This document shows positions 33,001-39,000 of a DNA stretch of 64,000 bases, piece after piece. This DNA comes from an uncultured candidate division Zixibacteria bacterium (GTDB lineage: Bacteria > Zixibacteria > MSB-5A5 > RBG-16-43-9), in the NCBI GenBank assembly GCA_963713865.1, contig OY970208.1:2464001-2528000 (forward strand), given 5' to 3'. The position numbers were made by a program. The number at the start of each line of letters is the position of its first letter. Position 1 is the stretch's first letter.

Positions 33001-36000
33001 CTTTTAACTCCCCAAAATCAGCCGGGGAAGGAAAGAAATCCACCACATGTTCTAAAAGGAGCTTAACTCCCCAGCAATTTGTAGCAGAGCCACAAAAGAT
33101 TGGAAAAAGTTTATGTTCTTTAATCCCTTTTCTTAAACCGATTTTAAACTCCTCCTCGGTTAAAGCTCCTTTTTCAAAATATTTCTCTAAAAGATTATCT
33201 TCTGCTTCAGCCACAGCTTCTATTAATTTCTCCCTGGCTTTTTTAACCTTCTCCTCTAATTCTGGAGGGATTTTATCCTCTTTTGTCTCAGTTCCACTAA
33301 ATAGATAAGCCTTCATCTTAACCAGATCAACCATTCCTTTGAAATTTAGTCCTTCATCTACCGGTATCTGTAAAGGTATAGCTTGATGGCCAAATCTTTT
33401 TTGAACTGCTTTAACCACTTTATCAAATTCCGAATGTTCTTTATCCAGTTTATTTATAAAGAAAGCTCTGGAGATTCCATATTTCTCAGCAATTGACCAG
33501 ACCTGCTCAGTTCCAACCTCAACTCCGGATAAAGCTGAAAGTAAAATCAAAGCTGTTTCAGTCACCCTTAATCCACCTACCACCTCTCCTATAAAATCTG
33601 CATAACCCGGCATATCAACTAAATTAATCTTACAATCTTTCCATTCCAAATGCAGCAGGGAAGCGGAAATTGAGATTTTACGGGAAATCTCATCTTCATT
33701 ATAATCTGAAACTGTGTTCCCCTCATCCACCTTGCCCAACCGGGTAGTAATCCCTGTAGTATAAAGCATCGCCTCCACCAGGGAGGTCTTACCTGCACCT
33801 CCATGCGCTACCACCCCCAGATTTCTAAGCTGTTCACTTTTAAATTCCTTCAAACTATCCTCCTTATTTTCAGATAAATCTGCTATGTAATTCAAAACAC
33901 CAAAATATATATTATTTATAATTTGTCAACTATCTTCTTCTCAAAAAAAGAAGAGACGCATCGCCATGCGTCTCTACAATCTTCCTTTTACCTTTTTCCT
34001 CTCACCTTTATAGACAAAATCCTGTCGGGTGGCTCGCTACAAGCGAGCAACTCGACCTACATATCTATTCCCGAAATATCAAATGATTATGCTACTTTGA
34101 ATCCTCGGATTCGAAAAATCTTCGCTGTAAATCCTTCACAATTTCCTCCACCATATTTTTAAATGCCTTATCCTTGAAATTCTCTTCAGCCATATAGCCT
34201 TTAAAAACTGCCCATCCTTTTTCCTTTTCATCTTTCTGAACATAATTTAAAAATATTGAAATAGCTTTACCTATATAATAATCTGAACCCTTTTCCTCAA
34301 TATCCATTTCTTTTATATCCTTCTCTATCTCGTATATCTTCTCTTCATAATATAAGGAAAATTCCTTTGATGCTTCTTGATATCTATCCTTTTCCCAGGT
34401 ATAGATAAAATCAACGCTGGGTGAACAGGCATGGCAGAGGTCCATATACCTATTCACTTCCCATTCAGCATCCAGAACCAAAAGCTCATCTATGGCGTCT
34501 CCATTCAAATCGCGTATTCCATGAATAACCTGCGTTTCCGGAAGATGGGGAAGAAATTCCCTAACCTTATGATCTTTTACCTGAAACACCTTCAAATACT
34601 CACAGGTCCAGCAGTTTCCACCAGTCCCACCGGTAACAATTAATTCTTTTAATCCATCCTTATTTATATCTTTAGCTCTACTGCTATCTCCACTTAGACT
34701 ATTTCCCAATTCATAGGACCACTCAACTAAGTTATAGATCTCAATTAATCTTGTTCCTTTCAGTTCATAGACAACCATACTATCCTGACGGTTTAAATCA
34801 TCTGACTCCTGCTGGCTGATGATGGCTATCACCTGCTGGTTTTTGTTATCCAGACTTTCGAAGATTGTATCTTTTATGCTATAACCCTCCTTCAAATTTG
34901 CGACTATCTCCCTCTGAAAAATCTCTCTGGTATCCTTTTCTTTTTTCTTAAACAGGAGTGAAAGCAAGAGAATAAGAACTATTACCCCGATTAAGATCAA
35001 CCCTGAAATATAAATCTGTTTTTTCTGCATAATGTTTGGCGAAAAATAAGCAAATCCTCATCTATTGTCAAATAAAAAAAGAACAAAAAATGGCGGAATA
35101 CTGTTTTATCCCTGCAGATAATTATCCTCTGCTTTGTAAGGAGAGGGAAAGAGGGGGGTTATACGGTAAGCCAGTCTTTTGTCTGACTCTAAAAAATGAA
35201 AGGTTGTCCCGCCTCTGGCAGGATGTTCTACATCTCTTTCAGCAGTTCTTTGATATCATAATCCTGAAAATTCTCTAACGTCTTTTTATTTAAATCGATT
35301 TTATCTTTTTTCAAATTTAATCTGTAAGAACCAACACGATTATTCTCGATCAGTGGTTTTTCTGAATGAGGAAGTTCTCTTTTCAGACGGTAAATGTACT
35401 TCCCTTGGTTATCCCCTTCCTCCAAATCCAGTTTATGAATCCAGCCATCCTCCTTTTTAAAAACTGCCCAGGCTAATTTGAATAAATATCTGAAACTTTT
35501 ATGGCTGAGCAGAAACCTTCTGCCATTTAGAATAATCGTATATTTCCCCTTAACCAAACTTCCATCTAAAATAAGTTTGCTTTTGGTAGAATCTCTTTTC
35601 CAGAAATTGAAGGTAGGGGCGTATTGCCTTACAACCCTACCAATTTTCCCGGACTCTTGAAGCTTTATCTCTTCTTTTAGCTTGATACCCACCTTTTCAG
35701 GAATTATATTTTTCAACTCCTCTAATTTTATTTCCTTAATCTGGTTTTTAGAGGTAATTCCTTTCAGAGATAGTTTCCAGAGAAAATTTCGTCCCAACCC
35801 TGAGACCTTTAATTTTGCTATTTCAATCATATCCTGACCTATCCCAAACTGAACTTGCCATGCTAAATTCTTTAAAATCTTTTCCAATCCCTCCCCGCAA
35901 TTCAAAATCCGGGCAATGGCAGAGGTAGAATCTAAAAGCCAGGCAAGCTCCTGGGCAATCTGGGAGATAAAACCACTTCTCAGACCATATTCATTTTCTA

Positions 36001-39000
36001 AATCATATAGAGGAGCAGGAGTTATCCAGTCACAGAAAAACAAAGAAAGTTTAAGCCTGGAAAGCTGCCTGGAGGATAACTGTCCACTTGAGATGGATAA
36101 AAACTCTTTTAACCTTTGCTCTGAGATACTATCCTGAGTAAATCTTCCTTTTAGTTTTTCTTGATAAACCCTGTTCTCTATTTCATGAAAAGTAAGAGGC
36201 GTATAAATCCTTTCACCATCTTTAGTCTTAAGAAGTTCATAAAACCAGCCCAATGGGTCTCCGATTGGATCCATTGTGAACAAATTCGGATTAACCGGTT
36301 CGGATGAGCTTTCTTTTTCCAGTTTTCTCTTGATCGCCAAGCCAGTTTCAATTTTTATCCCCTGGATAGATATGACTTTCCCCAAAGCAGTTACATAAAG
36401 GGCACCTTTTTCATCTGAGGTTAATATATTTTCCTCAATCAATTTTGAAATATTTTCATTTATACCATTTTGATCTCGATTTATAACGTCAGCTGAAAAG
36501 GTGTTGGCTAAATACTTTCTCAACCCTGCAGAATCCTTAGCCAGGCCCGAGGATACCAGGTCGAGGATGACATCCTCTAAATCTATTTTATCCAGAACCG
36601 GAATCAGCTTTTCTTCCTTGCCTTCGACATACTTATCCCAGAGTGAATCGAAATGAAACTGGTTACCTGCTAAAAGAACTGACCTGCCAAACTCTTTTTC
36701 CAGACCGAATCTTCCAGCTCTTCCGGACATATTCTCATATTCATTCCAGGTTAAGGGAACCATAACCCCTTTGTCGGTAAACTCGCCGCTTTCATATTTC
36801 AAGGTTTCTATAAAAACCGTCCTGGCTGGGAGATTTACCCCCATGGCTAAGGTGCTGGTTGCAAATACCAGTTTAATCTCTTTTTCAAGATAGGAATGTT
36901 CGACTAAACCCCTTTCTTCATAGGTTAAATCAGCATTATGGAATGCAATCCCTTTTTGGAGGCAGAATTCTAACTTTTCCTTAAGGCTGGTAACTTCAAG
37001 CTCAGCTAACTTCTCTAACACTTCGGAGGCAGGTTCTCCTTTGAACTCATCTGCAAATAGAATAGCCATCTTGATAGTCTCATTTCTGCTTTTCAGGAAG
37101 ACTAAAACCTGTTCTCCTTTCTCTAAGAGCATCTGGAGATTGGGAAATAGAATTTTTTCTATTTCTTCGCTTTCAACTTCTATGAATTTCTCCTCTCCTT
37201 CTTCCTGAGAGTTATATTCTTTATAAGTAAATATTCCTTTATATAGAATCCCCTGTAAAAGCTCAACCGGTCTCTTTTTCTCTAAAAGGTACTTGCATCC
37301 CAGCCAGGAAGCTAATCTCTCTACCTCCCCCAAGACTGCAGATAAGCCAATAATCTGTGGTTTGTATCCGGAATTCAGAACTTTGAGCAAAGCCAACTCC
37401 AAAACCTGACCCCGTGAGCTGTCTCCGATCATCTGTAACTCATCTATGATCAAAAGGTCTATGTTCCTCAGTAAGTCTAAGTTTTTAAGCAGCAGTTGAT
37501 TGAACTTTTCATATATCATAATACCTAAATCGAAATCACCTTTTTCCAAATCTGAATCAAACTCCCTTCTGTCTTTTGTAGATATAACTATCTTTATCCC
37601 TAAATTTGAATATTTAGTTTGAAAATCTGAAAACTTCTCCTCGGCAATTGCCTTAAGCGGAACCAGATAAACTGTCTTTTTTCGTCTAAAAATAGAACTG
37701 ATAGCCGCCATTTCTCCACAGAATGTCTTTCCGGAAGAAGTAGGGGCTGAGATTATCAGACTCTCCCCATTTAAAAGATTAAAACGCGTAACTGCTGATG
37801 ATTGTAAAGGTAATAACTTTTCCCCCTGACTTTCTTCCCAGGTCTTGATAATACTTTCCGGGATACCATATTTTAATAATTTTTTAACTTCCATTTACCC
37901 CTCCATAGAAAAACAGTCTAAAGTCTATAGTCCATAGGCTATAGTCTTTTTTAGCCTTTAGACTATAGCCTTTTGCCTATATTATAATACTGCCCATTTG
38001 TGCAGTTGTCAAGAAAAAAATAAAAAAAGTGATAAATTTGTCATTGCGAGGAATCCCCTACGGGGACGACGAAGCAATCTGTCTCCTGAAAGATAAACGG
38101 ATTGCTTCGCTCCTTTTAGTCGCTCGCAAAGACACTTTCTGTGTAGTAGCTTGAGTTAGTGGTAGCTCAGACATTCCTGTCTGAGCTTTAAGGAATCCCG
38201 CCTTGGGCGGGATTCTACCAACTTTAAAACAAAAGACCCAGGTTAAGAACAACCCGGGTCTACCAGTTTTTATAAAGAAGAATGGTAAGGAATGGTTATT
38301 TACGGTCACGAATCACGGGCAACAGTCACTCTCTTTTCACTCCAAAATCAATTTCTCAAACTGATCCACCAAACTATTGAAAAGCTCAATCGTTTTATTA
38401 ATCGGCTCAGGAGAGCTCATATCCACACCCGCTTTTTTCAGGATATTAATTATAATAAAGATCAAATCTGAGGTACTGGTAGGCCTCGAGATAAAACTAG
38501 TTCTGCCTCCGGCAATATGCGAACAATGCTCTCTTCTGTAAATCGATGCCGACCCATATTATCCTCTTTCCTCAGTCCAGTTTAATGTACTAACTTCTAA
38601 GCTGGACCGAAATATGGGGGGCAGGTCACTCCTTTCACGTCGCCTTTTGGACCATCATCCATATAAGGCAGGACGTAAAGAACTTCACTTCTTTCTCTGC
38701 CCGACCTTCTTGTCACGCTCACGGTATTCTTTTTCGACCTTTTGCCTTTCTTGCTTTTCTACTCCACGATATTCCTTCTCGATCCTGGCTCTTTCTTCAT
38801 CATTTGCCTGATGTTGCCTGTAATGATCTCCGAACTTCGCATCCTTGCCGTAATTGTATTTCCTGAAGACGAAAACTCTGCGGTCTTCGTGCCTGGGGCG
38901 GTAATAATACCCATTGCCCACAAAATAGAAATCATAGAAATCGCAGTCTACGACCGTCGCACCCCACTGTTGATATCGATGGCAGTCATAGCAATAACGG

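Follow-up and report, generated by a model that had tools for sequence, protein, structure and literature searches.

A Ski2-like helicase carrying an OmpR-type winged helix is a predicted, widely conserved LexA target in Zixibacteria

The window analysed here, a stretch of 64,000 nucleotides from an uncultured Zixibacteria bacterium (contig OY970208.1, positions 2,464,001 to 2,528,000), carries on its minus strand a gene for a Ski2-like superfamily 2 (SF2) helicase preceded by a predicted LexA box lying within its promoter. In window coordinates, the features of the locus are:

38007..38012, minus strand, -35 hexamer TTGACA, the best promoter match in 27000-38600 (11/12)
37990..38005, no strand assigned, predicted LexA box with one mismatch to CTGCAC-N4-GTGCAG, reading CTGCAC-AAAT-GGGCAG on the minus strand
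37984..37989, minus strand, -10 hexamer TATTAT after a 17-bp spacer, with an overlapping TATAAT 3 bases further downstream
37910..37983, minus strand, inverted repeat of the 5' leader (-26.8 kcal/mol as RNA)
37898..37904, minus strand, ribosome-binding site GGAGGGG, assigned from sequence
35228..37894, minus strand, gene for the 888-aa helicase, with a Hel308 five-domain fold and a C-terminal OmpR/PhoB-type winged helix
35648..37894, minus strand, helicase core (residues 1-749) with Q motif (Q31), Walker A PTSSGKT (lysine K56), DELQ and motif VI GRAGR
35231..35587, minus strand, OmpR/PhoB winged-helix domain (residues 770-888; AF2 pLDDT 92.7), following a low-confidence linker (750-771)

Scanning the genome for CTGCAC-N4-GTGCAG reproduced the count of the survey's finding, with two perfect sites (contig positions 224280 and 1889250) and three with one mismatch (2501990, at the helicase, and 867351 and 2546137, both inside ORFs), while eight control spacer lengths gave no perfect site. 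Three of the five are intergenic, and these lie ahead of lexA (TIGR00498, 214 bits, cut-off 111), dinB (PRK03103, 381.7, cut-off 381) and the helicase gene. Scoring of all 493 TTGAC-N18-TA frames in the genome singled out the same three promoters, as the survey had claimed, at 23-26 bits with the next best at 1.4; a matrix built from lexA sites alone gave the helicase box itself 24.5 bits. The layout at the three genes is TTGACA-N1-box-TAT(T/A)(A/T)T, correcting the TTGACA-N2-box-TATA spacing given earlier, so that the box fills the 17-bp sigma-70 spacer. The 11-mers of the leader inverted repeat occur 10 times in the genome, and this element is therefore probably a dispersed repeat outside the switch; the hairpin was accordingly set aside as a candidate regulatory RNA. 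The LexA encoded in this genome (contig 224385-224996) is intact, has both its DNA-binding and its S24 domain, and keeps A87-G88, S122 and K159.

The helicase passes the Pfam cut-offs for DEAD, Helicase_C and Helicase_dom4_arc, and the last of these was found in 4/4 archaea and 0/10 bacteria among 14 control genomes. Its AF2 model (pLDDT 86.9) has the RecA1-RecA2-WH-ratchet-HhH fold including the strand-separating hairpin, with 2zj8 (Hjm) matched by Foldseek at E 5e-42 and TM(target) 0.88 and archaeal targets at TM 0.84-0.90. Across 31 orthologs, none of the motor motifs varies. Repeat searches returned the E-values quoted previously (PRK02362, 1.4e-107; 2zj2, 1.9e-65). The five-domain fold, Q motif, Walker A/B, motif VI, hairpin and Helicase_dom4_arc are common to this protein, to archaeal Hel308/Hjm (2p6r, 2zj8, 2va8), to HELQ and to the Pol theta helicase domain, whereas its identity to them is 24-29% and its scores fall far below the NCBIfam cut-offs for Hel308 (NF040935, 278/1200 bits; PRK02362, 361/887; PRK00254, 277/1216; PRK01172, 235/891), which are lineage-specific, an archaeal control passing PRK02362 at 936. 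The R-x-R-A-R motif has a brake role in Hel308 domain 5. It is present in 3/3 archaeal rows and replaced in the bacterial ones (0/11), so that the brake and annealing properties of Hel308 cannot be assumed here. Domain 5 is treated as a brake in PMC13623763. In a quick tree of 42 rows, sampled from bacteria and from archaea of Methanosarcinales type only, 30 bacterial rows grouped together (SH-aLRT 95), separated by a long branch from the 7 archaeal ones. The description of the protein as an archaeal-type Hel308 thus holds for its fold and fails for family membership, given the PRK02362 and NF040935 scores, the missing RAR motif, the separate bacterial clade of the quick tree and the additional winged helix; its predicted LexA- or WYL-linked regulation also sets it apart from Hel308, HELQ and Pol theta.

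The winged helix, which the first reading of the locus had missed, was placed only by fold search, as Pfam and PDB sequence searches with the Zixibacteria version gave nothing useful. VIA-align matched it to BaeR (4b09; Z 10.0, rmsd 2.4, 88 aligned), the top 20 rows being all of OmpR/ToxR/CadC type, and to the SARP activators EmbR and AfsR at Z 6.4-6.8 over 105-108 residues, while in other phyla helicase orthologs score above the Pfam Trans_reg_C cut-off. Residues 770-888 therefore share the fold of the OmpR/PhoB effector domain (Trans_reg_C) and of SARP activators, differing in being fused to a helicase and in having no receiver domain; our literature search found no bacterial Ski2-like helicase fused to an OmpR winged helix. 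Stand-alone versions of 110-160 aa are common, one of them in a prophage of genome G043, and none was found in viral contigs (query P0192).

These matches to response-regulator effector domains and to EmbR and AfsR, along with the stand-alone versions, raise the idea that LexA control is real and that the protein acts mainly as a transcription regulator of a second tier, whose core would sense ssDNA and whose winged helix would switch further genes. Such a regulator would explain so small a LexA regulon, and in one genome (G120) the box precedes an operon of a zinc ribbon and the winged helix lacking the helicase core, which a pure role as an accessory grip does not explain. We nevertheless deem this reading unlikely, considering that the motor motifs are invariant, that no target motif came to light (no search aimed at one was made), that the recA-helicase operons of other lineages speak for work at the damaged site, and that helicases commonly use their winged helices for loading onto DNA.

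Helicase orthologs (E<=1e-37) were found in 115 of 120 genomes of the phylum, nearly always in single copy, extending the 42 of 46 reported by the survey. The lexA-trained matrix located a box upstream of the ortholog in 103/109 Zixibacteria, 99 of them with TTGAC, against 0-7 helicase promoters with permuted matrices; these genomes are kin, and the counts are not independent. In 40 genomes the helicase was the commonest site of strict pattern matches (33 of 59, versus 20 for lexA), in agreement with its earlier designation as the conserved LexA effector. Sites of at least 12 bits were present at 27/31 lexA loci, 21 of which formed the training set of the matrix. Of the two genomes said to lack the box, G007 and G008 (handles that may differ from the survey's), the former has a box 918 bp upstream, and in the latter the gene starts 8 bp from a contig end. 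In most families a small zinc-ribbon ORF leads the helicase; a complex prediction for one such pair (G045) scored 0.00 and gave no answer.

Three of the misses belong to genus g10, whose three genomes keep the helicase and its winged helix and have lost both LexA and the box (score <=2 bits, 0/3); the absence of LexA in this genus represents a single loss event. Together with the altered box of Hydrogenedentota (5/5, described below), this indicates that the box is lost or changed along with LexA, the counter-cases being G052 and G105, two assemblies of 120 and 170 contigs (completeness 97% and 96%) that keep the box and in which lexA was not found. These two genomes, and the better preservation of the helicase site than of lexA's own, would fit binding of the palindrome by a protein other than LexA, such as the helicase's own winged helix in autoregulation or another repressor. 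OmpR-type domains, however, usually bind direct repeats, and the genus g10 pattern also argues against it, as do a genome with an 18.7-bit box at lexA in which neither helicase nor winged helix was found (G117) and the nature of the targets, namely lexA, dinB, imuAB-dnaE2 and recA. The box moreover resembles CTRHAMRYBYGTTCAGS, bound experimentally by M. xanthus LexA (PMC9705874), and we regard a non-LexA binder as very unlikely.

In this genome the 600 bp preceding each of recA, cinA, pgsA, dprA, uvrA, uvrB, uvrC, radC and yebC-ruvCAB contain no site above 5.3 bits, in line with the earlier statement that recA, uvrA/B/C and radC lack one. recA, a usual though not universal member of LexA regulons, sits here in a cinA-thpR-recA-recX-alaS run. 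A helicase-ruvCAB operon was considered and rejected, the intervening genes having their own TTGACA promoters (35071, 33929), a terminator (33975) and no box. The claim that the Zixibacteria SOS regulon is minimal and without recA applies to this genome only, as further genes carry the box in relatives: a recA box within 1.5 kb was found at 3/31 loci (G005, G007 and G020, all of family f8; a weak 7.8-bit site in G085 was left out), imuA-imuB-dnaE2 lies behind a box in G034, and in G050 and G100 the boxed genes are an HD hydrolase and a DarG-C-like one. From the loose-pattern sites of complete genomes only the G034 imuA site was kept, L427 being unscored; the other seven of eight were discarded (five inside ORFs, one at a gene junction with 11.2 bits, one below 10 bits).

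The LexA box of Fibrobacter succinogenes, TGCNC-N4-GTGCA, resembles the one described here. Regulons of Myxococcus type, of Fibrobacter and of Geobacter have in common with that of Zixibacteria a 16-bp CTG-N10-CAG palindrome, lexA autoregulation, and dinB and imuAB-dnaE2 as members, and likewise show that a small regulon can omit recA and uvr genes, whereas here the most conserved member is the helicase. The usual SOS core comprises lexA, recA and error-prone polymerases according to PMC8565304, and Geobacter LexA is reported, in a paper cited there, not to bind recA. Our searches found no Hel308-type helicase placed in a LexA/SOS regulon in print, although the gene may appear in supplementary tables that accompany comparative work on LexA, and nothing on LexA/SOS in Zixibacteria or on LexA in Hydrogenedentota.

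We consider it probable that the gene encodes a LexA-repressed, damage-induced translocase acting at forks and in recombination. At the promoters of the helicase, dinB and lexA, a LexA dimer on the spacer palindrome would block sigma-70 polymerase; upon DNA damage RecA, itself outside LexA control in this genome, would trigger LexA self-cleavage and the three genes would be induced. The helicase would then most likely work like Hel308/HELQ, as an ssDNA-stimulated 3'-5' translocase unwinding short duplexes, clearing or annealing ssDNA at stalled forks and restraining RecA recombination (Hel308/HELQ biochemistry as given in section 4 of PMC13623763); the OmpR-type winged helix would provide an extra grip on duplex DNA.

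We judge it very unlikely that the gene serves phage defence or abortive infection, as a helicase that senses damage in the manner of Hachiman HamB and is induced with SOS. PADLOC HamB profiles match the helicase at E 5e-38, a plasmid-borne sister clade has an N-terminal caspase-like domain (one protein scanned), and two loci (L207, L229) adjoin recombinase or ParB/RepB genes; HamB, too, is a bacterial Ski2-like helicase linked to DNA damage. It is, however, an accessory defence gene accompanied by the HamA nuclease, while inspection of the locus neighbours here gave no hamA or conserved effector partner, the phylum-wide, mostly single-copy distribution is not the patchy one of defence islands, the structural match to HamB is much weaker (E 2e-12, versus 2e-65 for Hjm), and the caspase clade branches apart in the tree.

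The helicase gene extends beyond Zixibacteria. In Hydrogenedentota, CTGAA-N6-TTCAG occurs with no mismatch before the main lexA in 5/5 genomes, before the helicase in 5/5 and before dinB in one. Among 80 metagenome loci, lexA lies directly upstream of the helicase in 17 and recA in 16; in the 67 loci whose upstream sequence reaches 240 nt or more, the helicase directly follows one of these genes in 33 and adjoins neither in 34. Clustering at 70% identity divides the lexA-helicase operons into 8 groups and leaves the 16 recA-helicase loci in a single one; the palindrome changes along with the LexA recognition helix. The occurrence of an SOS-linked helicase across many unrelated bacteria points to an unrecognised DNA-repair gene. 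A bolder proposal, which we judge rather doubtful, is that of an ancient, undescribed bacterial branch of Hel308/HELQ/Pol-theta, fused to a transcription-factor domain as a core damage gene of many uncultured phyla and wired repeatedly to LexA (at least five different boxes) and WYL, which would act at the lesion itself and also, by way of its OmpR-type winged helix, serve as a second-tier regulator that senses ssDNA and does the work of missing SOS members.

Work on Hel308/HELQ biology has concerned archaea and eukaryotes. Among the predicted LexA targets of an entire phylum, the most conserved is now a bacterial protein of Hel308 fold, which other lineages link to lexA, recA or WYL regulators. 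This gives a candidate repair gene and predicted SOS boxes for Zixibacteria and Hydrogenedentota. As a single-chain, E. coli-expressible protein, it opens the question of HELQ-like recombination control alongside RecA.

Metagenome loci in which the helicase follows recA often have a WYL regulator alongside. One clade has an HTH_11-WYL-WCX gene pointing away from recA-helicase, and the interval separating the two holds a conserved palindrome; all six scanned ORFs, picked by eye from 18 loci, were of this type. This arrangement recalls the WYL damage regulators PafBC and DriD, although the WYL link is one of adjacency and WYL is not the regulator in this genome. Some of the metagenome loci adjoining neither lexA nor recA carry other palindromes, read by eye.

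On the minus strand, the 888-aa helicase ORF is preceded by the best sigma-70 promoter match within 11.6 kb, which carries a predicted LexA box.

35228-37894, minus strand: helicase ORF, 888 aa
38012-38007, minus strand: -35 element TTGACA, one base before the box
38005-37990, minus strand: predicted LexA box CTGCAC-AAAT-GGGCAG, 16 bp
37989-37984, minus strand: -10 element TATTAT

A single base separates TTGACA from the box (N1 rather than the N2 given by the survey) and TATTAT follows directly, so that the box fills the spacer. Short palindromic intergenic repeats cluster upstream of this promoter (38039-38281); an EF-G paralog and yebC-ruvC-ruvA-ruvB (28110-33895) come after the helicase on its strand, unboxed and served by promoters of their own.

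A pattern scan of the entire 2.72-Mb genome for CTGCAC-N4-GTGCAG returned two perfect and three one-mismatch sites, and no perfect site with any of eight alternative spacer lengths. Three of these sites are intergenic, one each ahead of lexA, dinB and the helicase, and a scoring matrix built exclusively on 21 sites upstream of lexA ranked these three first (23-26 bits), with the fourth of 493 TTGAC-N18-TA frames at 1.4 bits. By the same matrix, recA, the upstream genes of its run (dprA...pgsA-cinA-thpR-recA-recX-alaS), uvrA, uvrB, uvrC, radC and yebC-ruvCAB reached at most 5.3 bits in this genome. For the present genome, the three-gene regulon proposed in the survey is borne out as a prediction, and the boxed helicase is a real feature. 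Small LexA regulons and this box lineage, to which the Fibrobacter box belongs, were already known. The available parts of earlier papers describe the LexA box and shrunken LexA regulon of M. xanthus (PMC9705874), set out the SOS core genes and cite a Geobacter title (PMC8565304), name Fibrobacter species without giving the motif (PMC3091678), and contain no mention of a bacterial Hel308 (PMC10946056). No published account of this helicase family or these regulons was found in the literature outside subscription papers and supplements.

The helicase is very probably under LexA control. LexA, by occluding the spacer, would repress the promoter, and RecA-stimulated cleavage of LexA, whose cleavage residues are present (A87-G88, S122, K159), would induce the helicase together with DinB. 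By analogy with Hel308/HELQ, for which 3'-5' translocation, short-duplex unwinding, annealing and limiting of recombination are described in PMC13623763, the induced enzyme would act at stalled forks or recombination intermediates. We regard this reading as a whole, from repression and damage induction to Hel308/HELQ-like action, as likely.

The survey's "archaeal-type Hel308" held in part. By sequence as well as by fold, archaeal Hel308/Hjm match best and Pol theta next, and the motor motifs are invariant among orthologs, but the protein scores far under every Hel308 cut-off and the domain-5 RAR stretch of the archaeal rows is missing from 11/11 bacterial rows of the alignment. In a quick tree, 30 bacterial proteins formed one clade apart from seven Hel308 (a narrow, Methanosarcinales-type archaeal sampling) and five plasmid proteins, one with a caspase-like N-terminus. 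By its modelled fold the helicase would work as Hel308 does; its Hel308 membership is putative. The plasmid-borne helicases (~1000 aa; loci L249:4221-7238, L248, L250, L251 and L252), of which the one scanned begins with an EACC1-type caspase domain, are possibly a single-gene defence system. Behind a disordered linker, residues 770-888 are predicted to adopt an OmpR/PhoB winged-helix fold (Z 10.0, rmsd 2.4, 88 residues aligned to BaeR), and orthologs of other lineages pass Pfam Trans_reg_C (5/6 in one set, 4/7 in another). Genome G043 has a stand-alone winged-helix copy within a prophage-like gene run (L416:6560-6991).

The names of homologs place the lineage in Zixibacteria. A helicase ortholog (E<=1e-37) occurs in 115/120 sampled Zixibacteria genomes, and up to 1.5 kb upstream was read in 109 of the 115, leaving out six without a usable start. 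A site of at least 12 bits was present in 103/109 and of at least 15 bits in 93/109, with TTGAC ahead of it in 99/109; permuted matrices gave 0-7. In three of the six misses (G032, G082, G118) a degenerate site occupies this promoter region; the remaining three, from a single genus (G004, G026, G081), keep the helicase but have lost both lexA and the box (at most 2 bits). Counting against the LexA-box link, G052 and G105 keep the box though lexA was not found in their fragmented assemblies. G117 has the box at lexA and no detected helicase, and two further genomes where the helicase was not found, G021 and G112, have lexA sites of 6.9 and 11.5 bits. G081 and G093 carry a second, unboxed helicase copy.

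A strict promoter-plus-box pattern, run on 40 genomes, gave 59 sites (one in the reversed control). The helicase accounted for 33 of them, lexA for 20, dinB for three and an HD hydrolase accompanied by a DarG-C-like gene for two; the last was in G120, at a zinc ribbon with a stand-alone winged helix. Exclusion of recA does not extend to the phylum: within 1.5 kb, a range that more distant operon-leading sites would escape, recA had a site in 3/31 loci, all of one family (f8). In G034 a 19.4-bit site precedes imuA-imuB-dnaE2. From these tallies, helicase and lexA are the predicted core of the Zixibacteria LexA regulon, and its other members vary. The boxed HD-domain gene is dNTPase-like and followed by the DarG C-terminal-like gene (L113:1557-3433 in G050; L114:1477-3373 in G100). 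In G089, box and dinB are separated by a 109-aa gene that matches no known family (L115:392-721); in the present genome, lexA may be followed by a similar stretch that carries no annotation (contig 225130 onward).

Between box and helicase, 91/109 genomes have a Cys-rich ORF of 60-95 aa (L035:4198-4395 and 90 other promoters), all-or-none per family and absent in the order of this genome. The ORF is similar to the ribbon at the C-terminus of class II ribonucleotide reductase (PRK08665 positions 725-759, E 1.3e-6). In the present genome the ribbon occurs solely at the end of an NrdJ-like gene (contig 1171485-1173686). The boxed G120 operon (L117:3676-4595) lacks the helicase core and consists of a zinc ribbon plus a stand-alone winged-helix protein of 223 aa. 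This operon and the stand-alone copies favour a transcriptional role for the winged helix, the main rival to a fork- or recombination-directed helicase; autoregulation and an anti-phage function are weaker alternatives than this one.

Lineages other than Zixibacteria contributed 13 of 80 genome loci. In ten of the 13 (Hydrogenedentota or Nitrospirales), TTGAC-NN-CTGAA-N6-TTCAG-TA precedes the helicase, once with TTGAA; of the remaining three, two have lexA directly upstream and one has no upstream sequence. Since the pattern was derived from helicase loci, lexA promoters serve as an independent test: the main lexA carries CTGAA-N6-TTCAG with zero mismatch in 5/5 genomes, as does one dinB. A second Hydrogenedentota lexA (L245, genome G125), followed by imuA/imuB-like frames, has a different palindrome, ACCAGAC-N4-GTCTGGT.

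A third group (Myxococcales, Polyangia, Alcyoniella and Fimbriimonadaceae where named) came from 80 metagenome loci, 67 with enough flank. Directly upstream of the helicase lies recA in 16/67, a single 70%-identity cluster, and lexA in 17/67, eight such clusters with L207 and L229 included. Judged by eye, the lexA-type palindromes differ along with the LexA recognition helix: CTAAC-N4-GTTAG pairs with KSS(T/S), TAGTATTC-N4-GAATACTA with ST(K/R)GV.RHL, and CTAAAA-N4-TTTTAG with STRGVFDHL. Several stand-alone helicase copies have a (G/A)AAC-N4-GTT site resembling the Gram-positive box. For the recA clade, all six ORFs scanned, chosen from 18 loci, proved to be HTH_11-WYL-WCX genes in divergent orientation, with a CTATGAC-N7-GTCATAG-like palindrome in the gap between the genes. 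Such PafBC/DriD-type WYL regulators, divergent from recA-helicase or helicase alone across the conserved palindrome (L262, L267, L272, L274, L276, L277), mark a candidate LexA-independent damage regulon. At the other metagenome loci no lexA, recA or WYL link was established. In L229 (2330-6072), adjoined by ParB/RepB genes, lexA is followed by a helicase with a HATPase_c domain fused in place of the winged helix.
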